Positions 709-48,442 are shown, numbered from the stretch's first letter. The stretch: 64,000 bases of DNA from an uncultured Clostridia bacterium (GCA_944377455.1 CALWEZ010000001.1:4894-68893); one strand, 5' to 3'. Numbers and translations are program-made. The notes: a model not told the origin generated them from the letters alone.

Positions 709-734
709 AGGATGTAAATTTACATCCTTTTTTA
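709..734 (+). terminator. Rho-independent terminator after gltX
   Basis: Perfect hairpin AGGATGTAAATTTACATCCT followed by a T6 run. Confidence 0.75.
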
Positions 735-1211
735 TTTATTTAAAAAAATTTTTATTTATTTTGAAAACAATTAAAATAATTAAAAAAATAAATTTTGAAA
801 TATTTTATTAAATTTTTCGGCAAATTTTACAAAGATTTTTCGACGTTATAATACGCAACTTTACACCATAAAAATTTTTAAATAAATAAAAAATGCATAA
901 AAATTGTCTTAAAAATGCAAAAAAATTGAAAAAATATTGATTTTTTCTCAATTTTTGCCTATTTTTCAATTAATTTTTTAATTTTTTAATTATTTTTAAT
1001 GTTTTTCAATTTAATTAAATTTTAATTTTTATTTTAATTTTGGCGTTTTTAATTTATTTTTATTTTGTGATATTTTATCGTTTAAAACTTTTTATTCTCG
1101 CGAGTGAGAAAATTTAATTATTTTTGCTAACACGAGAAAGTTTGCTAAAATCCAAATAAAAGTTGCCATTATATATAAAATATATTTATAGCAGATAGTT
1201 TTATTATTTAT

Positions 1212-1240
1212 TTGCTTTTCTATGCGATTTTTATTATAAT
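1212..1240 (+). promoter_or_regulatory. Sigma-70/SigA-type promoter of the giant gene
   Basis: TTGCTT, 17-nt spacer, TATAAT. It ends 31 nt upstream of the ATG at 1272, with GAGG RBS in between. Confidence 0.55.
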
Positions 1241-1271
1241 AGAAATGTAGATAAAAATAGAAGAGGTTGAT

Positions 1272-16200: not shown

Positions 16201-19200
16201 TCATATTCACCTTAGATGTCACAATCGAAAGTGGCTATATCTTTGTTGGTGTGGAAACCAACAACGACGAAATCGGCATAGAGCAATCTATGAACGGCTC
16301 ACACCTAACTCTCATGGTCAGCGGTGTTAGAAGGGATACCGAGATTTCCATTCTTACCACCGAGCGTGAAAATGCCGTGACATTTAACTTTGATATTTCG
16401 GAGGCTATTAGCAGGCTTATCACAAATGACCAAACGAACACTGACAACATTGCCTATGTTCGCACTGGCGAAACCTTGACCGCTTACATCGGCTTAAATA
16501 GTGGCTATTTGATAAACGGAATCATCTTTGCCGATGCCGACGGAGAATCACAGCAAGTTGCATATAGTTTGGTGCAAGAAGAAGGCAATGCTTATAATGG
16601 TTACTATGAGTTCTCCATTGAAAATATCACGGCGGATGCCACGGTGAGCGTTGAGATAGGATATGTAACCTATGAAGTGACAACTGGCGTTTTGGTCTAT
16701 GACGAAAACGGCGAGATTGTTGAAGATGAGGATGTTTTAAACTTGTTCTCAACACTTGTCAATGGCGAGAGCTCAGTTATAGTGGAATATAGCTCTATGG
16801 TGACACTATCTTACACTTCTTCAACAACAGAATACAATTTTGCAGGCTGGTCACTTGACGGCTCAACCATCGTAAGTTCGGATAGTCCACTTGATATAAC
16901 AGTGACATCGAACACAACAGCCTATGCCATCTTTTCAAAAACACAATTTAGGGTGAATCTAAACTCTTATAGTTACTATGTTCTAAACGAGGAATATGGC
17001 GACAGCGAGTTAGAAGAAGAGGTTTATGATTTAATCTATGCACCATTCTACGATGAAGGTGTGGAAATCTATCAATCATACATCTACTATGGGTCCAGCA
17101 GAACGATAACTCTTCGCGTTCCAGACGGCTACACCTTCCTAGGCTATGGATATATCCTAAACGCTGAGTATAGTCAAGCAGAACTTGTGAGAGGCGACTT
17201 TGAATATGCCTATAGAAATCAAAGTGCAGAAAGAGAGATTGAGATAACACTTGACACGCTCTATATGCTCTCTCTTGGCTTTGGTGCAGACGGAAATAAC
17301 TTTGTGCCATTCTTCGTGGCATTGGCGCCAAACTCCATAGATTTCAACATAAGTTCTCACCTTGACTTTGACGGACTTATTGAAGACGACAATTTGGTTG
17401 CTGACATATCGCTTATCGGCTATGAAGATGGTGTAGCTGTCAACGTCAACGAATATGGCTATGTTACTGGCACGCTAAATCACTATAAAGATAACATAAC
17501 AGGCAACACTCAAAATTTCACAATAACCACAAACACAAATGGTGAGGTATATTTGAAGATAGGCACCTTGCGTTATGGCTACAATCTTTCAAGGGTTGTC
17601 TCTCAAAATGAAGCGCTTGTGTCGATACAATATGTTGGCGACATTGTGGAAGGCGACAAAACCTTTGCAATCTATAGGCTATATAACATCATAGGAAGCG
17701 TCAACGAACTTGATATAGATGTCTATTTCGAACCACAAAAGAGCATTATTGACATCAATTTTGTCAACGAAAATGGCGCGATTGTCTCTGGCGGAAGTCT
17801 CTTCCTTGACGTGACTGACGAGATGAGCGGAAAGGTTTGGGGAAATGGCTCCAATTTCTCAAGTCTCCAGGTTGTCGGCTTCACTGACACACACTTCTCG
17901 GTTGTTGCCTATGTTAGACTTGGTTTCATGATTGACATAAATGATGTCGAGCTCATATATGACAACGCAAATCTCACTATAAGCGACATAGTGGCATACC
18001 AACTAGACTTTGCTGAAAACAACTATAACTATGTCATCTACTTTAATGTCAGTGGCGTGCAGAACGGCACCACAATCTCCATTAGTTTACAGCCTCAAAC
18101 CTACCGCGTTGTTTTAAATGATATTTCGCTTGACAATCCAGTTGTTGCAGTGATTGACAATGTTAAATTCCATGAGACTCTTGATTTAAGCAGTGCGAAC
18201 AGCGCAAATATAACTTCAAGTTTGGGCTACGAAAACGGCATGCTCAACATCGTTCAATCTAAAACTGACTATGATTTTGGCGGATATTTCACATATGCAG
18301 GCGGACGCGGAATTCAATACATCAACTCGACTGGTCAAGCGCTGAGGGAATTCTTAGAGACTGGATATATCTTAAATGAAAGCACAGGAAGATACGAACT
18401 TAGTGACAACGCCTACATCGACACCGACGGCGTTATGACGATAAATCTCTATCTATACTGGTCATATCTAAAGACGCAAATCACCTTCTCAATCACGCCA
18501 AACATTCGTGCAAACATAACTGCACAAGATTTGGTGGAGGGCGAAAATTCGGCAAACTCATGGTTCAATGAGGATATGCCACTCTATATTGAGGTGGCGT
18601 TCAACACAAACATCACCTTGACCGCACCAGAGATAGAGGGCTATAGGTTCTATAAGTTTGTCATCAAGCAAAGAGATGCAAACAACAATCAACTGGCAGA
18701 TGTTGTAAGTTTCAGTAATGACCTTCCATGGTCGACCAATGTGCGCGATAGAATTGTGGAGATGACGATTGAGGTCTACTATTTTGCAAGAGTCAATGTT
18801 TCGCTTTCTGGCGGAGAGATGGAATATCAAATCACTCAAAATTGCGATGATATGTATGCTCAAGAACTTGTAAACGAAGGCTATGTCGACACCACCAAGG
18901 AATTCACTTTAACTGCACTTGAGTCCTCTGGCTATGATTTCAATTACTGGTATAAGGTTTCCACGCAACAAAGATACAGCACTCCATCATTCACCGACCA
19001 GATAAGCACCTATTCAAACTACATCTTGGCAGTGCAAGGCAAACGTGTGACATTGAGTTTCAGCGAGTATAACGCAACATCTGGATATATCTCGACCATG
19101 CTTGTTAGAAACATCTCCAACATCCAAACAAGCGTTTCGCTTGGACATTTAAACAACAACACCTTTGTCAAAGATGTCTATGAATATGATGTCAGAGTTG

Positions 19201-20177
19201 GAGACACCGTCACATTTATGGTGAGAGCTGACTATGGCTTCGGCGTAAGTTGGAATTTAGATGGAATTGAACTAGATCGCATTGCAAATCAATATCTCTA
19301 TTTCGTAATGGATATAACGGGTGATATGGCAGAGACAACCGTTTCGGTAATTCCTGAATTTATCGGCGAAAGCATGGCAATCTATGTCAATAAGTCCTTT
19401 GCTGAGAAGGATGTCATTGAAAACGCCACCGATGGTAACGATGCGAACTATGCTGGCTATGTTTCCTATGGTGGCAGGGCGATGGATGTCATCTTGCGTG
19501 ATTTAGGCGACGATTTAACCTTGAATATCGTTGTCAATGCTCGCTATAACATCACAAACCTTGAGTTTATCAACTACTATGGTCAGACCATCAATGCTAT
19601 GGAGTATTACGACAGCGAAAGTGGCACGCTGTATCTCACACGTGAAGAGATAGACCAAAATTATCTCGCTGGCACAATCGGACTTAACCTTGAATTTGAA
19701 AGACTCTACTTCGAGTTTGCTGAGACTGACGAGCAAGGCACAGGCACTTCGAACGACCCATATCTCATCTACACCATTGAAGATTTAACATATTACATGA
19801 ACAAAATCAACAGCGGTGCAATCAACGAAGATGGGCGCTTTTATGAACTTGCAAGTTATCGCGTTATGGCAGACCTTGTGCTAAACGAAAAATTCTGGAC
19901 GCCAATCGGCACAACCGAACATCCATTTAACGGCACTTTCAATTTCAACGGACATATAATTTCAAGCATCTATCTAGCCGAATACTACAATCCAACAAGT
20001 TACGGCGGACTATTTGGTGTGATAGGTTATAATGCAAGAATTTATCGAAACGAAGAAAGTCGTTGGTATATCTTCATCATCATAATTATCATAATAATTC
20101 TTCTAATTCTATTGATTATTCTTCTCATCTACAACAAGAAAAAGAAGGAAAAGCGAGAGGAATTGAACACTAAATAG
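1272..20177 (+). CDS. Giant (6301 aa) secreted, C-terminally membrane-anchored mosaic surface/adhesin-like protein
   Basis: Uninterrupted 18.9-kb ORF with RBS AGAGG. N-terminal Sec-type signal peptide (MKVKSLLISLLLIFGGSIGAFALSLPALSTQA). Contains GLUG-type modules, Listeria-Bacteroides (Flg_new-like) repeats, MBG/YDG-type repeats and a C-terminal poly-Ile TM followed by a KKKK stop-transfer. Confidence 0.9.
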   Translation: MKVKSLLISLLLIFGGSIGAFALSLPALSTQAVSVDASVWDGTYATSVNTDDVDILGFNSAGNETSLSSATTIRIYTAKGFSYFAGQVNNGTTYANRTIYLECDIDLNNQSWTPIGGSTTYFMGTFDGNNNTIYNLRNNSSYSTFGLFARVEGEIQDVNLVGVDISYSGTLSSSQYVGAIAGELHGGSVVGVSVKGSVNSSAYSSLSYVGGLVGYAHDAGNSDNDTSSPAIIENSVNYASVSGVSNVGGLVGYAYGDVRIETSANLGDVSNNRNSSTSSINIGGLVGRENSTTGKYLRITNAFNNGDITLVASTNNVDVRAGGLLGSSDSVRSGSTLANYFKFQYVYNGGDFSVTGYSSASNRSVYIGGLVGFADSPIDVFTDDYLISYSFNVGNLVSVDNSSSFSNLGSRFHFREIIATTLSQNVALGVSQNDVFYDYDAPYQVFYTSSIYNDLTNLIRVTHLDGRATSYEFLSTAPDKTDGVYGVNFDFYDGTDGYWLLSETVNEGLPYLYTASNTEDANEDWDTTLVGEWEGDGTLASPYLIYTAEDLALVADNYNAGAYSETSVTYFSLQNDIDLSSRAWEPIGVNNYSFKNAVFDGNGHTISGINCSLQVDYNQSVGLFGTIENAVVRNVIIEDFRFVGSAMTSINRATLVGSAVNSYIINCVDNTGYVYDDLTGSAVRTIATASSSYLIYGQNNISGGSYTNGMTNISSSTSRALRVGVETFLNTEGGLVYDEVLSTENRAITPHLGDGRFVMVDNSVVSVTLDSSINLYDTTYMSSLPVDTIEAYEDDDYNNSFYIVKEGYKIVEDGYTCGGALLSNLSGTNSWTDLINLGITAVWESAEDVEFKVYYNSYERYWHTVARTDGAVNYAGVEGADGTVDATYDHENDKFVTINMPYNTFNSMAGLQEELTEVVGGLERENFEIAGVYETFENGIYGGTDLISSEQSNAGFFYNTNGEYFLKWQGTDNNAYVITINFADTAFSNVGGYADRFDWNEAIDTITINYYSTGNNGLLSVVESQTFDASKVIDGQFRYNYSTDAVDEYFEYIEIQVELKFGFTYDMATYSNYFSGPSNIAGNDDYATYVETYGSAYVISPTGITDWNVQNRQEVASYRFGQAVGDVELDLKIARSSNSFTLNLGEGVYYALALPSEISNSGFFEIFTGEGDDGYVTLQEYNEYFFSNIGNTGFVFGLNMFDNYMLSTARTFDMESTTNYINFNNDTNFEYLLVRLYFPENTQGSQYEYYLYEFGEIMNDNVETLTQTLYLVEPVESATTRQTTGLLTYNGYTFRVLDRIASIERESDAVPNENGSLDYQVNFYTNQEFGLIFSTENSDNYMVEYAGQRDSTFEVLMPVENIQNDNLQKIYYDFSRAKENGDNFYSVSVFLGASSDAEGIIEIAQQRITAKVSIQFVDENGNILEGTEDMPLPTIYLSLNGMGVPDQDVGRWTRYTEGSQITISPLSSKSMSLRIVNNEYYQWTYRQDNQESTAVRFSEFSGQANGAYEDDGTAGTLDSQLYLNITRDGSLFDAEGHPYDYEELNQGSHFYNYFAVNEPVDSSEAILGVTGLIYESERTAFDFLMLYNESEVASSGRLQYLPNYDFVLTFVLKNVDYSVNIETKYRQTTDGELYDDNTNKSEVWTEETSGAVVDLGADSSFGVRTYSAEVSTRSARANSTSGYTFAGFQIVTDNDDAVVSEYISHDTEAKFESMISFLEDYSDYLEFDSGKDSYTVDIQAIYLSNTINYEASGSGDLTNITDGRTIIENYNGTDAIRYLSQGISESRGLSYGTYYYGNSAMGNIDDLGAGDFTFEMNEYYSNRYTFTGVALMDETNYLLAGGNYDESLYLAKFDATTYPEQVTISNSGLNTISADGDLVKNYLKDNIGSLSGQTIYIVPIVEQKTLLVSVTSGASTDEIVYDIDGNETTNNEVQLVFYYNTATNVEFDKEYLKTKENEYESYYLVSTQDSVILNEYFSKKQGHQVNGWVVYNSDETETTPIFISYYRLDENYFTSQYADESGEADYRVHIERNYTPNTYYINYSSGDERVVGSDIYGIATGSTTSTLALVNSETQIATNGFSITGYTFTNWNTNIDGTGRSFEAGEVVDENLCTGDDGDTSITLYAQWEAKNYSVEIVFNGGTYSDEESLVLNNITYNTTLSALSDIVPTRAGFTFDGFYTMSPTGIKSDFYLVDENTYLNSSVYGFNDVENNVALTIYATWRYTGDVTFTIDDNSRTYAYTGENISTPISSYVLNGTNLEFSYDDEFTISSAYTDVAVSYEFSGAIFDGNNIVLGSNNVGTYYVYINLTLTDESEFYPTGEIATLQGEFVFIIEQANIDYTYSSDYSLYYENIKYLVSLIEAEEEIERVNGYGSFTNMMNSLKGDGVVDDYATINNTYEYLFMKYFNMINTRVNSVENYETFMKFRNWTYDDYLSYYENAFYFSNGDDVGDEELSNLTGVRATRASVLASAFLLSYDVNNIIRSAVLYGDDASGIYSASQFVLTSPTAVNVASEIQIDSIEVISSNNMRTNSSYEVRAYLSASSNASLNNYNLQFITENGNNRYYISLPNAYMLLQVLKLENNSLVQSTFYNINATEIQVEYAGSSQDTYLHVLDRLTYTQLEENSNLYINLQLTTSNIGNSDHDTVYNFYIPENHFNFSSYQVLSVVNDLATNVTSDVNLILSEDFSYTIYNVNETAQITINPRLLTKVDGFTDVIDVDEQFYENLFSVTSFTYSLDGIDEITVENSQGLTDGRYFSEDGGVLLFEITNNNSGAPVIISTEPLTSIVIQVATRLGQYIRLIDIGQTETTSFEGDGIRSTGEYVFDLSETSNEIEYIEGVVTEVDYHAAFSDLVRVVTDYNLPSNNNQMLSYLQLAVDTSEDIIFPYESYLSCETLNYVSSDGSEAVYTTIFTGANGTYVGVTDNVFEQVNLKAYWGIGDVMPASLGVTYRQSVGTLESVASYDVGVFSSANSEYFTYNYEMVYTGVDGDLNEVVAQSDNINRLIYYLDNGGTLNDNGLYQIRITITMKEEYRYILSNPEDFEIVNSDVVFEIDLQPIHIVGIEYVGEDEIEYDAQDHTNSFSLNVSYLMYDASIDGYDSEDVQSVSYVYNQEGLFDITINRDSSVVTSMVNVGEYSIDFTIDESYYLFDGEVTTNFIANIVPCTIDLKVEDINLSKKFNMTDPILQHTISINGETLQFNLLRDGGEDIGNYNLYLNSNNGFVCSNLATNYQIVYGDVVLYDGTLQNLTTQVGLFTITASDTLRLSWTGGNIVVNYSADGYKLQIADGQVVAYAGDAETARRTLTVYDVATGEYVSSNLSLIEELLNYDNLTLMLYNSSSLETVYDSAIYEIRVVVKEDAEISNYYNNIIFDEAYVFEILPVQVDISDSTRFSFNKDYDGNNTLRVDLNGDVVGENYEGVYILATFATYHAGENIRVSLSLGATEGYNANNYSLSSSTARGTISKRDAIINVSARYDEGEDSYTYGELSRTNLAENLNISVLSLDGTQDLTDIFYLSTYTLNLDLENANANRLGFYYQGSYSVRIVSSSFADFNIETINGDNVTISPYTFNLSLPENYITITTVDVVSTYSDTQTYALTGDVITLSYRPVGLTQGELGAEGQYDLELNGSNSFIEGSIIVNLSAIDSFQIVATEEIIFLRFNDEKLLNLDYNGYTYNMSVEGNNFVIKNANNSSVNIPFTLYRKTGAGDEQFAGAVISVIICINNDARSFRDAGSYRLNLQVEAEGAVNFAFYDNYFINVSPIEINTTNLNLTKTYDGTNRLENIDFAERVDDGVVSDDVSITAVFASSQVGEGIDATLYLIGTSAGNYRFVDDNDQAVGNIVRANATIALASESYTYGSIMADSTFLYVVTSNERTVSTTEYSVSSTIQNGEYSSGGYLVVGGYSLALSITSNNYNISPTSLTFSVTPFSLNFTFTTDGVYRTSYGSDESHENTFVRDYSTIFGDTIDVTFTRENGAEVGYYEILSASVEDDNYQVANVTDNSPGGAYRITPSNERYYLLISTADKIAGDDNACLNMTLNYDGISYSTLEFVVDEENRNYRIILQDATGDNQVTYTLSLYSYDQEENIYTKTTNFDETLSADLRLATGVSARNVGEYSVYAENIESTNFDVIFGQTGTLSSYVVRVLPKELTYKVTGVSKTFDNTYAVLNYADASEILDGIVAGDELSLTLTMYNGENVARYVGENYTVVATLGNGSNYTISGTISGAITKAPVGIYVASVTITYGQTPTFDYLIDYGDLDLTYYDRSQISVDIAILNGEYSSSNHLIANEYALSATLNANDFEIGYYLDNNFEQEDVLSATLTVNPRALSIAQKDDTLLQSVFSKLYDGTDEIAIRDENSELLFNLNNVLEGDIVDVESARFAQTAPGNGIAVIFTLTGEDMANYTLANYTSGEIRPIVVEIAYDYQASEGETIVPNVEEDRLLNGVNYPFSSTNYLTANASDSTRNAFPTMLTGKNGYTFNGWTLNLTAEENTPEWTYLNDVLTRLSLNYTTSAGVYRISVGNNSSTIALLDELLSNEEDYFNLFESEGSARVTFTANWVGNSYYLTIHMQDANGEDLGGNYSAYATIEIDGNAMISSIYQTSVNHGDSVEIAVNLNDYIRIVGAYDVATGKEFSFDNVERVGNVVTYTINSVTAEYNIAFRFRYDNISIVLDLQGYNGEVTFDDDRFVPLTENRYVFTTSCQNLASSTLLDLPELFRSGYNLTGYLFNGETTVNADDFSDTLILTCAVLTDNGYELTYSPIFDELNIEVTLDYNYNSITETIFVPFNGTFNSAVGWEETPTREGYNFVNWTDENGVVVTGESVLTDPDGVTLTANWSIMQNYITLSLDENLILASSSVDITYDRENGVYIFDELDYGETLTFTLQVVDGYQVGEISYTQDDVIFEDVEFERTTDGANVTFTMPAPPYVKMSAVSAVRQNNVVVDGEHFSFTANIDGTPIEIVDNSFSVDTDVIFTLDVTIESGYIFVGVETNNDEIGIEQSMNGSHLTLMVSGVRRDTEISILTTERENAVTFNFDISEAISRLITNDQTNTDNIAYVRTGETLTAYIGLNSGYLINGIIFADADGESQQVAYSLVQEEGNAYNGYYEFSIENITADATVSVEIGYVTYEVTTGVLVYDENGEIVEDEDVLNLFSTLVNGESSVIVEYSSMVTLSYTSSTTEYNFAGWSLDGSTIVSSDSPLDITVTSNTTAYAIFSKTQFRVNLNSYSYYVLNEEYGDSELEEEVYDLIYAPFYDEGVEIYQSYIYYGSSRTITLRVPDGYTFLGYGYILNAEYSQAELVRGDFEYAYRNQSAEREIEITLDTLYMLSLGFGADGNNFVPFFVALAPNSIDFNISSHLDFDGLIEDDNLVADISLIGYEDGVAVNVNEYGYVTGTLNHYKDNITGNTQNFTITTNTNGEVYLKIGTLRYGYNLSRVVSQNEALVSIQYVGDIVEGDKTFAIYRLYNIIGSVNELDIDVYFEPQKSIIDINFVNENGAIVSGGSLFLDVTDEMSGKVWGNGSNFSSLQVVGFTDTHFSVVAYVRLGFMIDINDVELIYDNANLTISDIVAYQLDFAENNYNYVIYFNVSGVQNGTTISISLQPQTYRVVLNDISLDNPVVAVIDNVKFHETLDLSSANSANITSSLGYENGMLNIVQSKTDYDFGGYFTYAGGRGIQYINSTGQALREFLETGYILNESTGRYELSDNAYIDTDGVMTINLYLYWSYLKTQITFSITPNIRANITAQDLVEGENSANSWFNEDMPLYIEVAFNTNITLTAPEIEGYRFYKFVIKQRDANNNQLADVVSFSNDLPWSTNVRDRIVEMTIEVYYFARVNVSLSGGEMEYQITQNCDDMYAQELVNEGYVDTTKEFTLTALESSGYDFNYWYKVSTQQRYSTPSFTDQISTYSNYILAVQGKRVTLSFSEYNATSGYISTMLVRNISNIQTSVSLGHLNNNTFVKDVYEYDVRVGDTVTFMVRADYGFGVSWNLDGIELDRIANQYLYFVMDITGDMAETTVSVIPEFIGESMAIYVNKSFAEKDVIENATDGNDANYAGYVSYGGRAMDVILRDLGDDLTLNIVVNARYNITNLEFINYYGQTINAMEYYDSESGTLYLTREEIDQNYLAGTIGLNLEFERLYFEFAETDEQGTGTSNDPYLIYTIEDLTYYMNKINSGAINEDGRFYELASYRVMADLVLNEKFWTPIGTTEHPFNGTFNFNGHIISSIYLAEYYNPTSYGGLFGVIGYNARIYRNEESRWYIFIIIIIIIILLILLIILLIYNKKKKEKREELNTK
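1380..2400 (+). other. N-terminal GLUG-motif module of the giant protein
   Basis: WTPIGG..F.GTFDGNNNTIYNL core, followed by reiterated (Y/N)(V/I)GGLVG(Y/F/R) motifs at about nt 1898, 2010, 2114, 2232 and 2371. Related cores recur at about 2870-3260 and 19735-20040 (DPYLIYT.EDL...W.PIG...F.G.F.GNGH.IS). Confidence 0.6.
7378..7940 (+). other. Listeria-Bacteroides repeat (Flg_new-like) units inside the giant protein
   Basis: YINYSSG...GYTFTNWNTNIDGTGRSFEAGE...TLYAQWEAKNYSVEIVFNGGT...RAGFTFDGFYT...LTIYATW. This is the classic G(Y/F)(T/N)F.GW...F......(L/I)YA.W periodicity. Further single units lie near 14690, 15690 and 18270. Confidence 0.65.
10400..14550 (+). other. Block of MBG/YDG-type repeats inside the giant protein
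   Basis: Recurrent pattern of about 90-100 aa: (I/L).P..(I/L)......K.YDG(T/N)......GD.(V/L)......F......G......L.G..A.NY......G.I. Examples: NKDYDGNNTL...NANNYSL, LTKTYDGTNRL...SAGNYRF, SKLYDGTDEI...MANYTLANYTSGEI. Confidence 0.55.
20064..20132 (+). other. C-terminal transmembrane tail anchor of the giant protein
   Basis: WYIFIIIIIIIILLILLIILLIY followed by NKKKKEKREELNTK and the stop. No LPXTG-like sortase signal precedes it. Confidence 0.8.
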
Positions 20178-35503: not shown

Positions 35504-38317
35504 ATGGCAACTTTATTAGAACAAGTAAAAGAGGCTATAGAGAAATTTAAAACGGACGACAGTGTCATTAAAGCAAAAGGCGCTTCAGATAATTTGGTGG
35601 CGTATTTGGTTCCAGACACTTATGAAGTTAGCGATTTAAGGGGAAAAGTTTTAGTATATTGCCCACGGGCACAAGCAGGAAATAAATATCGAATTGCACT
35701 TCAAAGTACAGGTCCAAGGAAGGCTTTAGGTGATAAAACGCTTGAAGTTTCTTGTGTTATCTTGAAAGATGATATGACTTTAGGTAACCTAGAGAGTAGT
35801 GGAAGAACTAAAGTAATTATAAGCGGAAGCGGTGATAAAAAGAATAAGGATTTTAAAGATAGTGTAGATGCAATAGCAGATGCCCTAAAAATTGAAAAGA
35901 AAAAAAGCGCTAGTTCCGCAAACAAGTTTAAAGCATTTAATAAAGGACAAACTCCAGGACTTGTTCCAAAAGGCGATCCTGTATTGCACTATGATGGCAA
36001 AATGCTTGCACGAGAATATTTGAGAGGAATGCATGAAGAATTGCAAAGACAAAGCGCGGTGCCAGGCTCAAAAAGACGTAGCGGGCTTCCTAAATTTATT
36101 AAAGTGAATGGCAACGATGTGGTTGCAGGTTACTATGAATTTAAAGGCGTTCCTAACTCACTTATAAGTGATTTACCTGCAAAACAAAGAAAGTATGGTA
36201 ATTTTGCAAGAAGAGCACAGAGAAAAATGGTGTCTGATGAAAAAATAGATATTACTAACTCTAAGTTCAATTCTAAATCAAGCCAAGCCTGGGAAGAATA
36301 TAATGATGCACGTGAACAATATAATATGGCTGAAGACGAGGCGACTAAAAAGAAATGGCAGAAAAAGATGGATAAAGCGGAAGCGAGAGCAAAGGACGCT
36401 GGTTCGCCTATAGGTAAGTCAACAGTTAGGTTATATGTAAGCAAATATGCTGGAAACAACGGAAAACATGACCTTTATCTTCAAATAGGCAACAACCTTG
36501 CGCTTCCAACAAAAGATAATGACGGAAAAATCCTAGGAGTAAATAAGGTTAGTGAATTTACTCATGCAAAAGGCAAGAAAAATCTTGTTGTTGCAGTTGT
36601 ATATCCAAAGGCAAGCAGTAGAAATTCAGCCTTAACAAGCAATAATATGATTGTGTTTGGTGAGAATAAACCATTGCAAACATTGGTTAGCGAATGGAGA
36701 GAAGCAGAAAAAGATAAGAGCAAAACCGCATTCGCAGAACGCTTAGGGGGAGAAAATGGCTTGCCATATGAAACATACACCGCACTAGACAGCGAAAGCA
36801 ATGGCGACAAATATATTGAAAATGGCAGTCCAATCGTTAAGATTGGTGAGGCATTAAAATATGCTAAGGCTGGCGTTATAGGTGCAGTTTTAGGTGGTGT
36901 AGTTGCGGCAACAATAATAACTTCGCTAGGCGGTGGTCAAATTTCCGATAACATAAATAGAAGTGCAATAGAAAATGCAGCACGTGAGGGGTCATTAGCA
37001 CATATTTTTAACACTTTGGAAATTTCGGAAGAAACATATGGAAATGATTCAAATGGAATTGAGACTGCAAGCTTACCCGATACAAAAGGCAAGACATATG
37101 CAAATCTATTCAATTACACATCTTTAAACAACGAAAGTAATGTTATTATCGACACGGCTTCTGAAAGTGAGATTGAAAAGATGTTTAATTCAACCACGTA
37201 TGCTTCGACATTTGGTTATAACTATCAAACTGCCATTGATAATAACACAAACTATTTTGCTAGAGCGGCAGCTGGCAACATTATAGAAGGAATGGACTAC
37301 ACAGCTGAAGCAATTAGAGGAAGCTTTGAAGGATTAGGCGCAGCGGCAGGGCAGGAAATTGCTGAACATGGTGTTTCACTTGCCGAAGGTGATATTATAT
37401 ATCCTAACGGGACAAATAATTCTTCTTCATTTGAGGAACTTTTGAGATATAAAGGTCTGTCAAGGCAATTAGCAACTGAGGCAGTGGATGCATATTCAAA
37501 CGCCTTTGCGATAACATATGAGGAAAATTTAAATCAAATTGAAGCGGAAGTGCCTGAAGAAGATTTTGACTTGAATGACAGTCAAGGAAACTTGCAAGAG
37601 ACAGTTAATGCGATTACTGGTGATAACATTCTAATAGTAAATGTTCATTACAATGATTCCAAAAAAAATGGTGTTATCTATGGTATTAACGAAGAAGGAA
37701 ATTTAAAAGAAATATCTTTCGAAAACACCACAGATATTGCTGTGACTAGCGCGGAGGGTCTTGAAACTGCATTGTTGTCTGATCCTGAGCCAGAGATTAA
37801 AGAATATGCGTCTCTCGACGGTTTAATGTTTGATGATTATACGCGAAATAACATCTACAACAATTTGACTGATGAAAATGGCAGAATTTTCTACCAGATT
37901 ACAGGCGTTCCAACACACGACGAAGAAATTGAAGTAGAAACTGAAAACGAAAATGGAAGCACAACCACCTCCACAACCACTGTCACAATCAACGCTCACT
38001 ATGATACAGTTGTTGTGACTTTGGATAAAAATTTCAATGTTGACAAAGCAAGCGTGAATGTGTATTCTAACAGCGGAAAGACGGAGTCTAAGGAAGGCAT
38101 TGTTAAAACAGCGGTAAGTGAGATTACTGATGGTAAAGTTCCAGGTTCACCTGCTCTTTACACCTTAACTTCTGAAGAACCAGAAACTTCAAGTTATCCA
38201 AATCAACTAAGTCAAGAAAACATAGAACAAGCACAAGAAGCTTTAAGAGAAGAACTTTCTAATGAAAACACAAATGGCACTCAAATAGTTCCAGTGTCAA
38301 AAGAAAGAACCAGATAG
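35504..38317 (+). CDS. Orphan bitopic membrane protein (937 aa): basic cytoplasmic N-terminal half, single TM, acidic extracytoplasmic C-terminal half
   Basis: Long intact ORF with an AGGAGG RBS. No signal peptide. A single hydrophobic segment (AGVIGAVLGGVVAATIITSLGGG) lies near aa 455-478. The N-terminal half is K/R-rich and the C-terminal half is D/E/N/T-rich. No family recognised. Confidence 0.8.
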   Translation: MATLLEQVKEAIEKFKTDDSVIKAKGASDNLVAYLVPDTYEVSDLRGKVLVYCPRAQAGNKYRIALQSTGPRKALGDKTLEVSCVILKDDMTLGNLESSGRTKVIISGSGDKKNKDFKDSVDAIADALKIEKKKSASSANKFKAFNKGQTPGLVPKGDPVLHYDGKMLAREYLRGMHEELQRQSAVPGSKRRSGLPKFIKVNGNDVVAGYYEFKGVPNSLISDLPAKQRKYGNFARRAQRKMVSDEKIDITNSKFNSKSSQAWEEYNDAREQYNMAEDEATKKKWQKKMDKAEARAKDAGSPIGKSTVRLYVSKYAGNNGKHDLYLQIGNNLALPTKDNDGKILGVNKVSEFTHAKGKKNLVVAVVYPKASSRNSALTSNNMIVFGENKPLQTLVSEWREAEKDKSKTAFAERLGGENGLPYETYTALDSESNGDKYIENGSPIVKIGEALKYAKAGVIGAVLGGVVAATIITSLGGGQISDNINRSAIENAAREGSLAHIFNTLEISEETYGNDSNGIETASLPDTKGKTYANLFNYTSLNNESNVIIDTASESEIEKMFNSTTYASTFGYNYQTAIDNNTNYFARAAAGNIIEGMDYTAEAIRGSFEGLGAAAGQEIAEHGVSLAEGDIIYPNGTNNSSSFEELLRYKGLSRQLATEAVDAYSNAFAITYEENLNQIEAEVPEEDFDLNDSQGNLQETVNAITGDNILIVNVHYNDSKKNGVIYGINEEGNLKEISFENTTDIAVTSAEGLETALLSDPEPEIKEYASLDGLMFDDYTRNNIYNNLTDENGRIFYQITGVPTHDEEIEVETENENGSTTTSTTTVTINAHYDTVVVTLDKNFNVDKASVNVYSNSGKTESKEGIVKTAVSEITDGKVPGSPALYTLTSEEPETSSYPNQLSQENIEQAQEALREELSNENTNGTQIVPVSKERTR

Positions 38318-38560: not shown

Positions 38561-38646
38561 TGGTGCGGATAACAGGATTTGAACCTGCATGAGATTGCTC
38601 TCACTAGGACCTGAACCTAGCGCGTCTGCCATTCCGCCATATCCGC
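38561..38646 (-). tRNA. tRNA-Leu (anticodon CAG), CCA encoded
   Basis: The reverse complement reads GCGGATATGGCGGAATGGCAGACGCGCTAGGTTCAGGTCCTAGTGAGAGCAATCTCATGCAGGTTCAAATCCTGTTATCCGCACCA. It has a 7-bp acceptor stem, anticodon stem CTAGG/CCTAG with loop TTCAGGT, a long variable arm and a GGTTCAAATCC T-loop. Confidence 0.93.
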
Positions 38647-41287: not shown

Positions 41288-41316
41288 TTGACATTATTAA
41301 GAGTTTGTGTTATACT
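41288..41316 (+). promoter_or_regulatory. Promoter of the 322-aa/1971-aa gene pair
   Basis: TTGACA, 17-nt spacer, TATACT with an extended -10 TG. Confidence 0.6.
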
Positions 41317-41377: not shown

Positions 41378-42346
41378 TTGACTAACATAAAAAACTATAT
41401 CCTATATGGCGTTATCATTCTTGTTGCCGTTATCACTGGTGTGGCAATAGGAAGTGTTTATGTTAGCGGTCTAATTCCAGCGGTCGACACATCGAGTTTG
41501 ACTGAGGCGGCTCTTCGTGATGACGAGGACGAAATAAGGCAACTTTATGAAGACGCTGTCAGCGGAAGAAGAACCTCTTTTTCGGCTGTCGAACTATACC
41601 AAATCGGCGAGTATAAACTTAAAAACACGGATAGGTATGTGAAAATCTTAAGCGGTAGTGTTGAAAGTTTGTTTGGTATAACTCAAAATATGAAGGCGAT
41701 CAAAACTTCAACCGAAGATGGTATATATTATCTCAAAATGAGCCCTGCGAAAATGGACATGGCGCCTTCCATGGCAGTTAAACAAAGATATGAATATGAT
41801 AATCCTAATGAAATATATCTTAACGAAACGAGAGATAAGAATAACATCAAAGGTAATACTGTGGATGAATACTATGTAGACCTTGACGAAAGCACTGCAA
41901 AGACATTAACGCTTGATGAGTATAAATCTTTCTTCAACACAGAGCCAACAACCCCGCTCACTTATATTGTTTCTGACCTTACCACACAGGAAGGCACTTA
42001 TGACACAAATGTCACCTTAAATAGCGACAATCAATATGTTTTCAACATCAAAATGACAGGCGAATATGCCACATATGCTGCTTTTTACTATAGTTATGAA
42101 ATTCGGCATTTTAGTGGAGACATTCCAACAACTCCGCCAAAGCAATCGGAACTTCCTTCATGGAAAAGTGTGGAAATGACAGTAACTATGGACAGCGATT
42201 TTAATATACTTTCCATTCACTACTCAGAAAGTTATAATATAGACACAAGTATTTTACCAAATGCTCCAGTCAATGACGACTTTGAAGATGTCTTCTACTA
42301 TGATGACGAAACCATTGAACAATACCTTGCGCTATCTTTAGCGTAA
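41378..42346 (+). CDS. Hypothetical N-terminally membrane-anchored extracytoplasmic protein (322 aa)
   Basis: TTG start 6 nt after AAGGAG. N-terminal TM segment ILYGVIILVAVITGVAIGSVYV. The rest is hydrophilic. No family recognised. Confidence 0.7.
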   Translation: MTNIKNYILYGVIILVAVITGVAIGSVYVSGLIPAVDTSSLTEAALRDDEDEIRQLYEDAVSGRRTSFSAVELYQIGEYKLKNTDRYVKILSGSVESLFGITQNMKAIKTSTEDGIYYLKMSPAKMDMAPSMAVKQRYEYDNPNEIYLNETRDKNNIKGNTVDEYYVDLDESTAKTLTLDEYKSFFNTEPTTPLTYIVSDLTTQEGTYDTNVTLNSDNQYVFNIKMTGEYATYAAFYYSYEIRHFSGDIPTTPPKQSELPSWKSVEMTVTMDSDFNILSIHYSESYNIDTSILPNAPVNDDFEDVFYYDDETIEQYLALSLA

Positions 42347-42369
42347 TTGCAAGTTAAATTAGGAGAAAT

Positions 42370-45300
42370 ATGCGTAGCCCAGAGAAAAGAGAACGAACAT
42401 TTTTATCGAAGATGTTTAGGACAATTTCAATCTACATGATAATTGCCCTATGTTCTTTTTTTAGTTATATTATGCTGTTTGGCGATGTCTCTTTCACGCC
42501 GACCTTACCAGGTAGTAATGTTGATGCTTCGGAAGACTCAAACATGAACAAACTTCTAAACGCCTTTATGGGCGCCGAAAATGTGACGGCGAATATGAAC
42601 ATATCTGTTGTCGGAAATGATTTGGATGTTGACTTGGATGTGGACGCCAAAGTCAACATGCAAAACTTTGATTTTGATGTAACTTTGAAAACCGCTCTTA
42701 ATGACACTTCGTATAACATCGAAATTTTTAAAAATAGCGAATTAGATAGTTTTCTTCATATCAATATAAATGATAGCCTTTTTAAACTCGACTTGAATGA
42801 AATTTCTTCTATGGAAGAGATTGATTTTTCCGCCTTGCTATCAAGTTTCAGTGGCGGAGAACAATTGAGCAGTATTTTAGATGCTGTCGGCACTGTTATC
42901 GGCGTTGATTTAACTGACCTTAGCATGGAAAATATAATGACAAAGTTAGAAATCGTTGAAAATGTCTCGGAAAATGCCTATCGTTTCACCATCTACTTTG
43001 GAAATCTGCGTTTGACACTCGATACCAGCGAAGATTTCAAAAATATGACGGCGTCTGTGAGAGAACTCACTGTCAATAACTACAAGATTAATTGCGCGAT
43101 TGACTCAATCACGCTTGACGACCAAAATTTTGACATCGACACCGAACCAGCAGGCGAAGAGTTAGACATCTCTTCTCTTCTAAAAATCGTGGAAAACGCA
43201 AAGTTAGATGATAATAGTTACGCACTATCTGGCGATGTTGTTGTTAAATATGACGGTAAGGAGTTAGCAGGCAGTGTTGGCGCGAAGATTGTTGATTCTG
43301 GAAATGGAGTGCTTCCATTTGTTCGCTTCAAGACAAATGTGGGCGGAGTTGACGCATATATCTACTATATCGACAACACCATTTATTTAAGCATTGAACA
43401 ACTCAATTTCAAATTTGATATTGACAATATTCCTGAAATCGAAAGCATTTTGGAAGAGTATAATATCAACTTGGATGTTGAGGCGCTCATGGCAGTCACG
43501 GTTGCTATGCCAACCTTTGAAAACTTCAATATCAAAGTTTTAGAAAATGGCTTTGAACTATCACTACAAGATGAAATCATTTTCGATGACACAATTTCAT
43601 TGAGTAATTCTAATATTACGCTTATAACAAAAACTATCGACGAAAATATCTTGCCAGACCTATTAAATCTAACAACAACTTTGACAATGGATGGAACTCC
43701 AAAAGAGGTCGGCGTGGAAATTTCAAACATCATGATAGGTCAAAGCACGCAATATCTATCCGATATGGAGTTAGACGGAAATGAGGTTTTAAATCTTAAC
43801 ACAAAGAGTGGCATGGTCAGTGTTCAAGATTATGTCGACCTAGCAAACTTTATAGACATCTTTAAAGTGGTTAAAGATGCCGAAAACATAACCTTTAACA
43901 TCGATGTTGAAATTGACGATTTACTCAAAGTGAGTGGCTTAGGAAAGTTTGACATTAAATCAATGAGTTTCAACCTAGATGTTGATGTGGATATCGACGG
44001 CTTGAAATTAAATATCTTCCTTTATGGCGAAGATATGTTAAATAGCCATGTGGTCTATGCAACAATCGGCGAGAAGAGTTTAAAACTCAACTTGGATGAA
44101 GCGAATTTGACAGAACTACTCACAGAGTTTGGCGTGAGCATGGACACGGCAAGTGCGCTTGACAAGGTCAGTGCCGAACTTGGAGTGGACTTTGAAAACA
44201 TCGATATTTTAGAGATATTAAAGAACTTGACCTTAACTGAGAGTGAAGAGAACGGCGTTTTGACCTACACAATATCCTTGCTTGCAAGCGAAAATGAAGA
44301 GTCAACCGCTATCAATTCAAATGAAGTTACAAGCAACGAAAATCTTATCGGCCTAATTCTAACTTACAACAAAAACACAAACACCTTTGGCTTGAATTTT
44401 GCTAAGAATATTTCAGGTTATGATATCACATTAAATGTCAGTGACCTTCAAATCAATGCAAGCGACTTTGCTTTAACAGCGCCAACTGGCAACGAAGAAG
44501 ACATCACACCAATCTTTGACATTGTGGAGAACGCAAAGGTTGAGAATGGATACGCTCTTTCAAGTGTGGCAACCATCACGCTTGATGATAAATCCTATCA
44601 GGCACGCATTTCGGCGCAGTTGCTAAAGAGCGGAAATGAATATTTGCCATATATTTCTCTTAGCACCGAGATTGAGGGTGTTAAGATAAATGCATACCTT
44701 GTTGAAGAAGAGATATATCTAAATGTCGAGAACTTGATGTTTGCAGTGAACATTAATGAACTTGATATTGAAGAACTTACAAACATTTTAGAAGAAGAAT
44801 TTAATTTAAGCGCTGACGCCATTGAGACGATAACCATTGCCATGCCAGCACTTGCCGACATCACAATTTCGGGCTTAACAAACGGCTTTAATATAAGTTT
44901 GGATAGCGAGATTGTGGTTAACGATAACCTTAAACTTTCAAACAGCGACTTAGACATCGTGACATATGCTGATAACGGCGTGATGGTTCTAGATTACATT
45001 CAAATATCCTCGCAACTTTCCGCAACTGGCAAAGCATATTCCTTGATATTTAAGTTAGACGACATCATGTTAGGCGAAGAGGCGGAAGGTTTAGACACAT
45101 TTGTATTCACTGACGGCAAGGTGACAGCAATCAACATCGACAACAACACAGTTCCAACCGACGACTTTGTTCGCGTGGAAAATCTACTTAAAATCTTCAA
45201 AGAGATTGTGGATGCTGAAAACTTAACCTTTAACATCGACGTTGAAATTGACGATTTACTCAAAGTGAGTGGCTTAGGAAAGTTTGACATTAAATCAATG

Positions 45301-48285
45301 AGTTTCAACCTAGATGTTGATGTGGATATCGACGGCTTGAAACTAAACATCTTCCTTTATGGCGAAGATATGTTAAATAGCCATGTGGTCTATGCAACAA
45401 TCGGCGAGAAGAGTTTAAAACTCAACTTGGACGAAGCGAATTTGACAGAACTACTCACAGAGTTTGGCGTGAGCATGGACACGGCAAGTGCGCTTGACGA
45501 GGTCAGTGCCGAACTTGGAGTTGATTTTGAAAATATCGACATTTTAGAGATATTGAAGAACTTGACCTTAACTGAGATTGAAGAGAACGGCGTTTTGACC
45601 TACACAATATCCTTGCTTGCAAGCGAAAATGAAGAGTTAACCGCTATCAATTCAAATGAAGTTGCAAGCAACGAAAATCTTATCGACCTAATTCTAACTT
45701 ACAACAAAAACACAAACACCTTTGGCTTGAATTTTGCTAAGAATATTTCAGGTTATGATATCACATTAAATGTCAGTGACCTTCAAATCAATGCAAGCGA
45801 CTTCACTTTAACAGCGCCAACTGGCAACGAAGAAGACATCACGCCAATCTTTGACATTGTGGAAGATATCAAGGTGGATGACTACACCTATGCAATCTCT
45901 GGCGATTTGGCAGTTAGATACAGCACAACCTCTTTCTATGGCGATATGCTTGCCATGATTGTGCGTAAGGGCGAGGAATATGTGCCATATGTTCGCGTCT
46001 ACACAAGCGCTATGAACATTGAAACCTATATCTATCTACTTGATGATGACATCTATCTTGACCTTCAAGGCTTAAGGCTCACTTTCAATTTATCAGAGTC
46101 GACCATAGATGAGATTTTGACATTTGTCAGCGATGACTTAAAGTTGACTATCTCTGGCATGGAAAATTTAACCGCCACATTTAATGTGATTTTACCAGCA
46201 CTAAATAGCATAAGCGCAAATTGGATTGACGGTGGCGTGCAAATCAATATCGGCGAAGATTTGAAATACACCGAAACCGCTAAATTTGCCGATATCGTTA
46301 TGCAAGCGTTCGGCGAAAGCGCAAACGGCAAAATCTATCCAACAAAAGTTGTGATAGGCGCAAACATAGTCGACCCTAACACCGACATCTATGATAGTTA
46401 CGAAGAGTGGTGGCTTGAAAATGAAGAGGCAATAACGAAAGATAAAAACTTTGCAATCTACCTTTCAAATGTGGCGATAGGAACGAACAGCCTGTTCATG
46501 GATGACATTGTCTTTGACGAACTAGGCAATGTTATGAGCCTTAAGGGTAAGGACGGCAAGTATTCCTTAAACAACTTTGAAAACATCAAGGGACTTTTAT
46601 CTCTTGCGAAAGGATTGCTTGATTATTTAAACAACGGCTCCTATTCTTATACCACTGAAGATATCACTGCCACGCTCTATAAACTTTCACTAAATGCAAA
46701 GTTGGGCAACACAGAATTCACAGACAGCAATGTTCTTGTGGAACTTGCGGAAGAGATTAACGCTGAAAATAAGGCGGAAGAAGATAGGAAGATTGTTTCC
46801 ACTTTGTTTGGTGGTAAGTCACTGAAGGTGCAAGGCGACATGAATATTACAACAACAAGCGTTTCAGAAGATAACACATCTACCACCACAGCACATGAGG
46901 CATCCATCTACTATAATAGCAATGAATACGAAGATGAGAATACCCCGAACACAAGCGGACTTTACATTACCTATGCACATGACAATTTCATAAATTCCGA
47001 CACAAAATTCCGTGGACATATAGAAAATGCTAGCATGAGTGACCTAATTGCCATGATTTTGGGAATAACGAATGTTAAACTTGACCCTGCAATACTCGAA
47101 AGTTGGGATTTGACCACTTCGTTTGAGCAGTCGACCACCGATTTCAGTTTCTTGCGTGAACTTATGGGCTTAAATAAAGAGGAAGGCGACGATGTTGTCA
47201 CAACTGTTGACTCCACACTTTTAAGCGTTTCCAACATTTTAAAGATGCTTGATAACATCTCTTTTGTGAACGAAGATAGCACATCCAGCCTTATCATCAG
47301 CATAGTTAGCGGAGAAGATGTTGGCAATTTAACAATCTTATTCACAAAAGAGATTGTAGATGGCGTAACAGTCTGCTCGCCAACAAGCATCAGTTTTACG
47401 CTTGGTGATATGTATGCAAACATCAACTTTGAATATGGAGAGCCAGCGGACGACCAACAGACAGACACTAACTCGAATGGAGTTCAAGATAACTTTGAAT
47501 TTACCTACAACACTTCAGCCACACATCACGACCTAAGCAGTCTGCCAGAGTTTATGGACATCGCAGTGAATAAAATAAATGAACGCACAATTAATCTAAG
47601 TGGGACTGCATATTTAAAAATACTTACTGATTTGACTGCTATAAATATTGATGTTGATGTGACAATTAACTTAGTAGATTTTTCAGTTGTGGCATATCTG
47701 AGTCCAGAAGCACTTATTGGCACAACTTATCTTGATAGAGTTTCAGCTTTCTTTGGAGAAACAACTAAGTATTCAACTATCGGAGAATATGATAAGAGAG
47801 TTTCAACGATAACTTTTGCGAAAGATGGTAATGGAGAATATATTTTGACAATTCACCAAGATACTGATGGTAGTGTTAAAGAATGGTCATACAAAACATC
47901 TGAAATGTTAGGAACTACAGACGGAACTTCAAATATTATTATCATCATGGCGCAAGCGATTGGTTTGACCGACAGTATGGTTGATTTAATAACTTGGGGA
48001 ATGGGCTTAATGGAACCTAATATTTCGTTGGAAGAAACATTACAATCATTCAATCGTAATACAGTTGAGGAAACCACCGAAAGTGGAACTATTGTAGAGA
48101 AATTGACTGGTTATACACTCGGCATTAAAGGCGAAACTCTAACTGGCACAAGTCTAATTGGCGATTTTGACCTTACTGTGGGCGTTAGCGAAAATAATGG
48201 AGAATATGCGTTATCCAACGTTGTTACCACCATGAAAATTTTTGCAAGCATGGTTACACTTGACCTTGATTTAGGCATATTGTGA
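42370..48285 (+). CDS. Giant (1971 aa) N-terminally membrane-anchored, beta-rich modular protein with an internal 445-aa repeat module
   Basis: RBS AGGAG. N-terminal TM segment ISIYMIIALCSFFSYIMLF. Three successive copies begin with the module (E)EDI(S/T)...(I/F)(V/D)IVE(N/D)(A/I)K...YA(L/I)S(G/S), at about nt 43160, 44500 and 45835. The gene starts 23 nt after the 322-aa gene. Confidence 0.85.
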   Translation: MRSPEKRERTFLSKMFRTISIYMIIALCSFFSYIMLFGDVSFTPTLPGSNVDASEDSNMNKLLNAFMGAENVTANMNISVVGNDLDVDLDVDAKVNMQNFDFDVTLKTALNDTSYNIEIFKNSELDSFLHININDSLFKLDLNEISSMEEIDFSALLSSFSGGEQLSSILDAVGTVIGVDLTDLSMENIMTKLEIVENVSENAYRFTIYFGNLRLTLDTSEDFKNMTASVRELTVNNYKINCAIDSITLDDQNFDIDTEPAGEELDISSLLKIVENAKLDDNSYALSGDVVVKYDGKELAGSVGAKIVDSGNGVLPFVRFKTNVGGVDAYIYYIDNTIYLSIEQLNFKFDIDNIPEIESILEEYNINLDVEALMAVTVAMPTFENFNIKVLENGFELSLQDEIIFDDTISLSNSNITLITKTIDENILPDLLNLTTTLTMDGTPKEVGVEISNIMIGQSTQYLSDMELDGNEVLNLNTKSGMVSVQDYVDLANFIDIFKVVKDAENITFNIDVEIDDLLKVSGLGKFDIKSMSFNLDVDVDIDGLKLNIFLYGEDMLNSHVVYATIGEKSLKLNLDEANLTELLTEFGVSMDTASALDKVSAELGVDFENIDILEILKNLTLTESEENGVLTYTISLLASENEESTAINSNEVTSNENLIGLILTYNKNTNTFGLNFAKNISGYDITLNVSDLQINASDFALTAPTGNEEDITPIFDIVENAKVENGYALSSVATITLDDKSYQARISAQLLKSGNEYLPYISLSTEIEGVKINAYLVEEEIYLNVENLMFAVNINELDIEELTNILEEEFNLSADAIETITIAMPALADITISGLTNGFNISLDSEIVVNDNLKLSNSDLDIVTYADNGVMVLDYIQISSQLSATGKAYSLIFKLDDIMLGEEAEGLDTFVFTDGKVTAINIDNNTVPTDDFVRVENLLKIFKEIVDAENLTFNIDVEIDDLLKVSGLGKFDIKSMSFNLDVDVDIDGLKLNIFLYGEDMLNSHVVYATIGEKSLKLNLDEANLTELLTEFGVSMDTASALDEVSAELGVDFENIDILEILKNLTLTEIEENGVLTYTISLLASENEELTAINSNEVASNENLIDLILTYNKNTNTFGLNFAKNISGYDITLNVSDLQINASDFTLTAPTGNEEDITPIFDIVEDIKVDDYTYAISGDLAVRYSTTSFYGDMLAMIVRKGEEYVPYVRVYTSAMNIETYIYLLDDDIYLDLQGLRLTFNLSESTIDEILTFVSDDLKLTISGMENLTATFNVILPALNSISANWIDGGVQINIGEDLKYTETAKFADIVMQAFGESANGKIYPTKVVIGANIVDPNTDIYDSYEEWWLENEEAITKDKNFAIYLSNVAIGTNSLFMDDIVFDELGNVMSLKGKDGKYSLNNFENIKGLLSLAKGLLDYLNNGSYSYTTEDITATLYKLSLNAKLGNTEFTDSNVLVELAEEINAENKAEEDRKIVSTLFGGKSLKVQGDMNITTTSVSEDNTSTTTAHEASIYYNSNEYEDENTPNTSGLYITYAHDNFINSDTKFRGHIENASMSDLIAMILGITNVKLDPAILESWDLTTSFEQSTTDFSFLRELMGLNKEEGDDVVTTVDSTLLSVSNILKMLDNISFVNEDSTSSLIISIVSGEDVGNLTILFTKEIVDGVTVCSPTSISFTLGDMYANINFEYGEPADDQQTDTNSNGVQDNFEFTYNTSATHHDLSSLPEFMDIAVNKINERTINLSGTAYLKILTDLTAINIDVDVTINLVDFSVVAYLSPEALIGTTYLDRVSAFFGETTKYSTIGEYDKRVSTITFAKDGNGEYILTIHQDTDGSVKEWSYKTSEMLGTTDGTSNIIIIMAQAIGLTDSMVDLITWGMGLMEPNISLEETLQSFNRNTVEETTESGTIVEKLTGYTLGIKGETLTGTSLIGDFDLTVGVSENNGEYALSNVVTTMKIFASMVTLDLDLGIL
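43876..44530 (+). repeat. Intragenic near-identical direct repeat, copy 1 (655 bp)
   Basis: Encodes DAENITFNIDVEIDDLLKVSGLGKFDIKSMSFNLDVDVDIDGLKLNIFLYGEDMLNSHVVYATIGEKSLKLNLDEANL... . The stretch is almost base-for-base identical to 45211-45865, at an offset of 1335 bp (445 codons). Confidence 0.9.
45211..45865 (+). repeat. Intragenic near-identical direct repeat, copy 2 (655 bp)
   Basis: Same as copy 1 apart from scattered substitutions, for example K/E in ALD(K/E)VSAELG, S/I in LTE(S/I)EENG, S/L in NEE(S/L)TAIN, G/D in NLI(G/D)LIL and A/T in SDF(A/T)LTAP. Confidence 0.9.
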
Positions 48286-48344
48286 CGAAAAAAGTATAAT
48301 GCCTGCATATCAAAGTTTCTGTTAAAATATTTATCAACATTATG

Positions 48345-48378
48345 AAAAAATATCTCTAATTAATTAGAGGTATTTTTT
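48345..48378. terminator. Bidirectional terminator at the convergence of the + and - strand gene blocks
   Basis: A6 run, then the palindrome CTCTAATTAATTAGAG (extendable), then a T6 run. Lies between the 1971-aa gene stop (48285) and the metG stop (48443). Confidence 0.7.
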
Positions 48379-48442
48379 ACATATTTTTTAATATCACTAT
48401 CTCTTTTTTAATTATGAATAAAAAGTGTTGTAAGTTATCTTT

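Follow-up and report, generated by a model that had tools for sequence, protein, structure and literature searches.

Two adjacent genes predicted to encode a split, membrane-anchored surface stalk with a lipid-carrier-like base in an uncultured Clostridia bacterium

The window analysed, a stretch of 64,000 nucleotides from the genome of an uncultured Clostridia bacterium (GCA_944377455.1, CALWEZ010000001.1:4894-68893), contains two neighbouring plus-strand genes, termed here A and B, which code for a small and a giant anchored protein, respectively (Table 1). The ORF calls, a promoter scan and hydropathy analysis confirmed the coordinates of both ORFs, the 23-nt gap that separates them, their shared promoter and the single N-terminal helix of each product, all of which had been proposed in a preliminary description of the sequence. 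The promoter is the top promoter-like site between 41000 and 48600, with 11 of 12 consensus positions matched and an extended -10 TG. Ribosome-binding sites of the GGAG type lie ahead of A and of B, and the start codons of the two genes are backed by homologues beginning MTNIKNY.../MRSPE.... An ORF of 1971 codons with 26 full-length homologues, as in the case of B, is far beyond chance. A weaker promoter-like site (TTTCCA-17-TATAAT, 42210-42238, plus strand, 10/12) is located within the 3' end of A, and as a candidate internal promoter it could add to the transcription of B. The hairpin between B and the convergent metG gene is flanked by an A-run and a T-run, and none of 200 shuffled sequences folded equally well. 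It is predicted to be a bidirectional intrinsic terminator, probably serving both B and metG, and it was missed by the consensus scan because its stem is AT-rich. Gene B also contains an antisense ORF of 165 aa with a GTG start (46971-47468, minus strand), in all likelihood a spurious one, since the reading frame of B is conserved.

Housekeeping genes flank the pair on both sides, namely those of HolB, LysRS, ComEC, HolA, Ogt, DUF4186 and RlmD upstream, and those of MetRS, HisRS, a UvrD-like helicase and gyrase downstream. The gene of tRNA-Leu(CAG) (38561-38646, minus strand) is the sole minus-strand gene among plus-strand genes, and is placed just 5' of the Ogt/DUF4186/RlmD/A/B block. The conserved block also holds a fast-evolving ORF of 937 aa (35504-38317, plus strand) which belongs to no Pfam or NCBIfam family. 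It displays 30% identity over ~800 aa to a 989-aa gene at the same position of the related locus L003 (2844-5813), and the counterpart position in locus L004 is occupied by an 800-aa gene that gave no BLASTP match. Another giant ORF of the window, of 6301 aa (1272-20177, plus strand), is separate and adhesin-like, with Flg_new, Flg_new_2 and YDG domains, and on its own would account for ~2% of a genome of ~1 Mb. Neither this ORF nor the other large ORFs of the window showed similarity to A or B.

Table 1. Position and basis of the features assigned to the A-B locus (coordinates are those of the window)
Feature	Position	Strand	Basis
Putative promoter TTGACA-17-TATACT, sigma-70-like, TG extension	41288..41316	+	Consensus match only
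Gene A, 322 aa, TTG start, predicted membrane-anchored base protein	41378..42346	+	ORF
A, predicted signal-anchor helix, residues ~4-30	41387..41467	+	Hydropathy; AF2 helix 3-30
A, predicted ectodomain, residues ~40-322, curved antiparallel sheet and helices, LolA/LprG-like	41495..42343	+	DSSP of model; Foldseek
Gene B, 1971 aa, predicted giant anchored stalk protein	42370..48285	+	ORF
B, predicted basic cytoplasmic tail and transmembrane helix, residues 1-42	42370..42495	+	Hydropathy, helix ~18-42
B, membrane-proximal region with partial module	42496..43071	+	Internal BLASTP, offsets 427, 872
B, module 1, residues ~235-680	43072..44409	+	Internal BLASTP, E 1e-27 to 1e-120
Recently homogenised block, copy 1	43858..44528	+	Self-BLASTN
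B, module 2, residues ~681-1125	44410..45744	+	Internal BLASTP
Recently homogenised block, copy 2	45193..45863	+	Self-BLASTN
B, module 3, diverged, residues ~1126-1570	45745..47079	+	20-33% identity to modules 1, 2
B, helical linker and conserved C-terminal head, residues ~1571-1971, HHxLSSLPEFMD motif	47080..48282	+	Profile, invariant columns
Hairpin with A-run and T-run flanks, between B and convergent metG	48341..48383	.	19 bp, -16.5 kcal/mol, z -7.7

Protein A bears a net charge of -26 and contains no cysteine. Its 42 homologues measure 310-342 aa and share 59 invariant positions, and in their alignment A17, G21 and G25 of the anchoring helix are invariant (AxxxGxxxG), which may point to a role of this motif in helix packing. 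The AlphaFold2 model of A, built with family alignments, is a confident one (pLDDT 87.6, pTM 0.84); it opens with the transmembrane helix, after which come three helices and an antiparallel sheet of roughly nine strands into which helices are inserted. When the model was compared with the PDB by Foldseek, LprG was matched with a probability of 1.0 and a TM-score of 0.44-0.45 on the target, and further matches were obtained to S. aureus SAOUHSC_02783 (4eg9), LolA3, ependymin and VioE, along with weak ones to lipovitellin and MTP. The conserved aromatic residues Y118, Y220, F222, Y230, Y237, Y238, Y282, Y286, F306 and Y308 alternate along the strands and a helix of the model, a pattern suggestive of a hydrophobic cavity that might bind acyl chains.

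At the sequence level neither protein could be assigned to a family. Searches of Pfam, NCBIfam, PADLOC and PHROGs gave no domain match for A or B, in agreement with the earlier statement that no domain is recognisable in them, and sequence-profile searches of the PDB with the A and B family profiles returned nothing. The LolA, LolB, LppX_LprAFG and MucB_RseB models gave no match at E<=10 in 20 A-family or 7 B-family members; B5, Beta-prop_EML and Kre9, which turned up in the E<=10 scans of alignment members, were dismissed as scattered noise. No relation between the A profile and B was found by hhalign, which means that, in sequence, A does not amount to just one more module of B. A further database search, for which the A profile was widened, brought in four additional distant proteins, all of them unannotated and none named. 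P0065 (309 aa), which matches the A family over 67% of A, carries the cupin-type domains PF07883 and PF02311; lying on a 1.8-kb contig, it could reflect a chimeric gene call or an error of assembly.

Protein B is built from repeats with a period of exactly 445 aa, which upholds the module length given in the preliminary description; its estimate of about 2.5 copies has to be revised to three copies and a fragment, the latter (residues 148-234) resembling a module tail. Modules 1 and 2 share an inner block of 671 nt with 96% DNA identity, while the flanks of the block reach only ~30-35% protein identity. The first ~45 residues are the best-conserved stretch within the first 300, as judged from 19 loci. 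A profile of the C-terminal 819 residues gathered 167 clusters at 50% identity, 129 of them below 1e-10, and the full-length members of this superfamily are nearly all 1000-3500 aa long. The most distant relatives share only profile positions ~445-792, equivalent to residues ~1600-1971 of B, which identifies the distal head as the conserved core of the superfamily. The extreme C-terminus occurs in alternative forms, the type of the window ending at profile position 763 and others continuing to 792 (...YTNNYYRNQY).

B carries a net charge of about -223 and has three cysteines, and some of its homologues possess added C-terminal repeats of Flg_new, a domain occurring in surface proteins. The acidity, the few cysteines, the Flg_new repeats and the positive-inside tail together suggest that B is oriented with its N-terminus inside and its C-terminus outside the cell. 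No AXA site is found in its 20-residue hydrophobic segment, its C-terminus (...VTLDLDLGIL) lacks LPXTG, and no SLH, CWB2, LysM, Ig-like or solenoid domains of Pfam were detected in it.

The AlphaFold model of residues 1153-1971 of B is of moderate quality (pLDDT 70.5, pTM 0.60). It displays runs of hairpins of 10-15 residues each, with helices of 12-18 residues between the runs, and a helical stretch of ~75 residues at model residues 401-474. The Foldseek comparison of this model with the PDB returned LolB with a probability of 1.0 and a TM-score of 0.44, ependymin (0.94), LprG and, weakly, vitellogenin. Porins and ushers were matched globally at TM-scores <0.1, matches that reflect only the large meander sheets of the model, and a viral fold search of BFVD gave noise alone (TM<0.1). 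The comparison of six sub-segments of residues 1153-1971 with one another by hhalign did not reveal any smaller repeat unit.

Co-occurrence of the two genes had been named as a check on the proposed two-gene unit, and it was borne out in the related genomes. The A-B pair is single-copy, and all the related genomes that were examined have it at the same conserved position. The order RlmD, A-like gene, giant gene and convergent MetRS/HisRS recurs in loci L001-L004, including L004, where A is just 36% identical and B is alignable over its C-terminal half only (28%). When one genome per species was scanned with the A profile, 16 loci emerged; at each of them whose contig extends far enough, A is followed after 0-115 nt by a giant ORF, which measures 1498-3029 aa or is truncated by the end of the contig. 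Wherever the contig leaves room, A and B are adjacent in 20 related loci. At the distant locus L021, a 366-aa A homologue overlaps the start of a 2575-aa gene of the B family (hhalign probability 96.5, E 7.5e-10).

In eight distant B-family proteins (P0189, P0202, P0153, P0205, P0185, P0183, P0196 and P0210), the A-like domain is fused directly after the anchor; P0189 has no separate small gene upstream, and P0183 belongs to the same cluster as WP_251548384.1 of Pumilibacter intestinalis. The fusion in eight distant homologues indicates that A and B form one unit, and the order of the fused parts, i.e. anchor, A domain, B modules and head, places A at the membrane-proximal end. The small protein, which had been suggested to be an assembly or docking factor, thus stands as an obligate partner, and its role is restated as that of a membrane-proximal domain of the same machine. 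In P0185 (MCH5164303.1), residues 1-22, MKKFIASALFILLITLPFLTAC, contain a lipobox (LTAC) in place of the transmembrane helix; this fits an A domain that is extracytoplasmic and tethered to the membrane, and it indicates that the mode of tethering is interchangeable within the family. The unusual conservation of the transmembrane segments suggests that, in the split form, the helices of A and B may pack against each other. These observations support describing A and B as a membrane-anchored surface stalk in split form, whose middle part, of variable length, lies between a base resembling lipid carriers and a conserved head.

A distant A-like gene of 283 aa (L024, 10001-10852) stands alone between a hydrolase gene and the AlaRS gene, with no giant neighbour, so the A domain exists outside the pair as well. 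Beside the A/B pair of L021 lie, at 1-3633 and 18646-19728, the gene of a 1698-aa protein with YDG/MBG_2/Flg_new_2 domains and the start of a 9209-aa gene. Genes of giant surface proteins cluster in the genomes that bear A and B.

The number of modules in B differs among relatives; two are present in L012 and L017, three in the window, L006, L007 and L010, four in L003 and L009, and six in L014. Units of 1263-1386 nt have recently been duplicated in five relatives, with 90-97% DNA identity, and the variation from 2 to 6 modules arises by recent tandem duplication. When identities were compared genome by genome, A (36-92%) was always more conserved than B (23-65%). The identity of B is mosaic along its length, the N- and C-terminal parts being 42 and 64% identical in L008, and 64 and 50% identical in L006, respectively.

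The closest relatives of the genome are gut metagenome-assembled genomes of uncultured Clostridia and Candidatus Caccovivens faecavium. Caccovivens, the nearest relative to bear a name, corresponds to the GTDB genus UBA11517 of the family UBA1242, order Christensenellales (PMC8035907), and, judging from these relatives, the genome of the window would belong to the same family. UBA1242 genomes are mostly <1 Mb and are reported to be without lipid, amino-acid and nucleotide synthesis and without standard transporters; life as an obligate symbiont or parasite has been proposed for the family, which unexpectedly keeps sporulation genes (PMC12306168). P. intestinalis is a cultured, small-celled gut bacterium of the GTDB family CAG-552 that grows in pure culture.

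The reading preferred here, to which we give somewhat less than an even chance as a whole, is that A and B are halves of a single surface device, confined to gut Christensenellales, that reaches out to an external target and also handles hydrophobic cargo. A would be seated at the membrane with its signal-anchor helix and a single LprG/LolA-like half-barrel ectodomain. B would comprise a short basic cytoplasmic tail, the conserved transmembrane helix, a very acidic extracellular stalk and a head of ~400 aa, in which the stalk of tandem beta-rich modules of ~445 aa could carry the head through the wall to an outside target, for example a partner cell or material of host origin. The lipid-carrier-like domains may bind hydrophobic cargo, which would end up at the LprG-like base beside the membrane, and the overall role might be attachment combined with lipid scavenging. 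This model is favoured because folds of the lipid-carrier type are predicted in both proteins, because the base sits at the membrane, and because lipid synthesis and ordinary transporters are reported to be absent from the host lineage. The architecture of the pair is well supported, and we infer the cargo function; contact of A with B through their helices, binding of a ligand and the direction of its transfer are likewise putative. The fold matches are modest, with TM-scores of 0.31-0.45, and no sequence link to a LolA, LolB or LprG family was found, which tells against a cargo function; the LolA-like fold is also present in proteins that do not carry lipids. The occurrence of the family in pure-culture Pumilibacter means that a partner cell is not obligatory, and the lone A-like gene of L024 is a further point against the model.

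The resemblance of A and of part of B to the LolA superfamily (LprG/LppX, LolA/LolB and ependymin) is partial, with TM-scores <0.5, and concerns the predicted folds; the unclosed antiparallel barrel with helices on its concave face that characterises the superfamily is seen at this level only. The A domain may be likened to LprG and LolB in being tethered to the cytoplasmic membrane on its outer side, and a lipobox is even used in one of the fused homologues. Unlike the members of that superfamily, the proteins of the A-B pair are anchored by a transmembrane helix, their lipid-carrier-like domain is tied or fused to a repetitive protein of 1100-3500 aa, and they are found in Clostridia.

A simpler view is that B is a plain adhesin or spacer fibre, serving attachment to mucus, food particles or cells, or merely spacing, with the LolA-like domains as bricks free of cargo; we regard this as possible, though on the doubtful side, and the fibrillar surface structure offered as an alternative in the preliminary description is still viable in this form. 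The variation from 2 to 6 modules, the mosaic identity in L006 and L008 and the recent intragenic duplications agree with such a fibre, as do the extreme acidity of B, the Flg_new repeats of some homologues and the presence of other giant surface proteins nearby (the 6301-aa ORF, and the 9209-aa gene in L021). Fast mosaic evolution of the kind seen in B is equally typical of plain adhesins. B shares its size, tandem repeats and acidity with Embp/Ebh, the serine-rich repeat proteins and Giant1-5 of Apilactobacillus kunkeei, and giant Gram-positive surface proteins, for which intragenic recombination has been documented, resemble it further in recombination and duplication within the gene and in the Flg_new repeats (PMC12863079). 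However, the cleavable signal peptide, the LPXTG or wall-binding domain and the Ig-like or beta-solenoid domains that mark sortase-anchored or wall-bound adhesins were not found in B. The pair, in contrast to typical accessory adhesins, occurs as a single copy at a fixed place amid housekeeping genes over order-level divergence; its head is the most conserved part and its stalk the least, the opposite of most adhesins; and the fibre leaves unexplained the highly conserved partner A, with its 59 invariant positions, which is obligate and in relatives fused to B. The device might also be a structural or morphogenetic scaffold of the envelope, which organises or measures the cell's own wall, surface layer or spore envelope and has no outside target. 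The core-genome location, the universal retention in genomes <1 Mb, the presence in axenically grown Pumilibacter, the conserved transmembrane segments and the sporulation genes kept by UBA1242 (PMC12306168) are in keeping with a scaffold; yet a ruler should hold its length, which varies two-fold among close relatives, and neither wall-binding domains in the proteins nor envelope-synthesis genes in the conserved block were detected, and we therefore consider a scaffold distinctly unlikely.

A bridge of the AsmA/TamB/YhdP type, which would transport lipid across the periplasm along a continuous beta-taco groove, had been suggested at the outset and is very improbable in the light of the present searches. 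B has in common with TamB, YhdP and VPS13 that a very long beta-rich region, with ~1900 residues of long amphipathic strands, comes after an anchor at the N-terminus and, in the proposed logic, that hydrophobic cargo moves along a long protein; a pTM of 0.60 across the 819 modelled residues is suggestive of a superstructure that is fairly rigid, and the weak Foldseek matches include large proteins of lipid transfer, namely vitellogenin (with B) and MTP and lipovitellin (with A). Against this, no AsmA, AsmA_2, TamB/DUF490, DUF748 or DUF3971 match was obtained at E<=10 in HMMER-level searches of 20 A-family and 7 B-family members, and TamB, YhdP, VPS13 and ATG2 are absent from the best 50 PDB matches of B 1153-1971. 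Helices interrupt the sheets in the model of that region, and a bridge over a fixed gap is hard to square with a length that, in close relatives, ranges between 2 and 6 modules. The Christensenellales, the order of Clostridia to which the hosts belong, are not known to count among the recognised diderm Firmicutes, and no outer membrane is expected in the lineage. Still less credible, and close to negligible, is a giant of the polymorphic-toxin or contact-dependent-inhibition type with a variable C-terminal effector. The large size of B and its alternative extreme C-termini (profile 763 vs 792) could be read in this way, but it is the C-terminal 350-400 aa that are conserved most strongly in the superfamily, neither a toxin nor an immunity domain was matched, and the convergent metG follows right after the terminator, which leaves no small immunity gene. 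An S-layer protein was rejected along with the sortase-dependent adhesin and the polymorphic toxin, as no SLH/CWB2/LysM, LPXTG or toxin domains were found.

A further reading, close to the reach-out model and held to be unlikely, is that the pair constitutes a bridge-like machine for lipid acquisition in single-membrane bacteria, made of LolA/LprG-like domains and unrelated to AsmA/VPS13, with which genome-reduced gut Christensenellales unable to make lipids would draw them from gut contents or other cells. Such a lipid-scavenging bridge, if real, would be a lipid-acquisition machine of a new type for bacteria with a single membrane. For UBA1242 and related gut Christensenellales (PMC12306168), A-B is one of the few concrete candidates for a cell-contact or scavenging apparatus. 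The operon of 6.9 kb would amount to close to 1% of a genome of <1 Mb, and is unannotated and fixed in position in the relatives. The A and B families have only "hypothetical protein" entries in the databases, with no match to an annotated family, which upholds the earlier view of an envelope unit of two genes that falls into no described family; a literature search covering tandem LolA-like proteins of Gram-positives, and AsmA-like ones of monoderms, did not bring up any description of the two families. Even as a mere adhesin, the pair would add two protein families that are new, and with them a clear example of the fission or fusion of genes. The homologue WP_251548384.1 of the cultured P. 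intestinalis makes experiments on this system possible.
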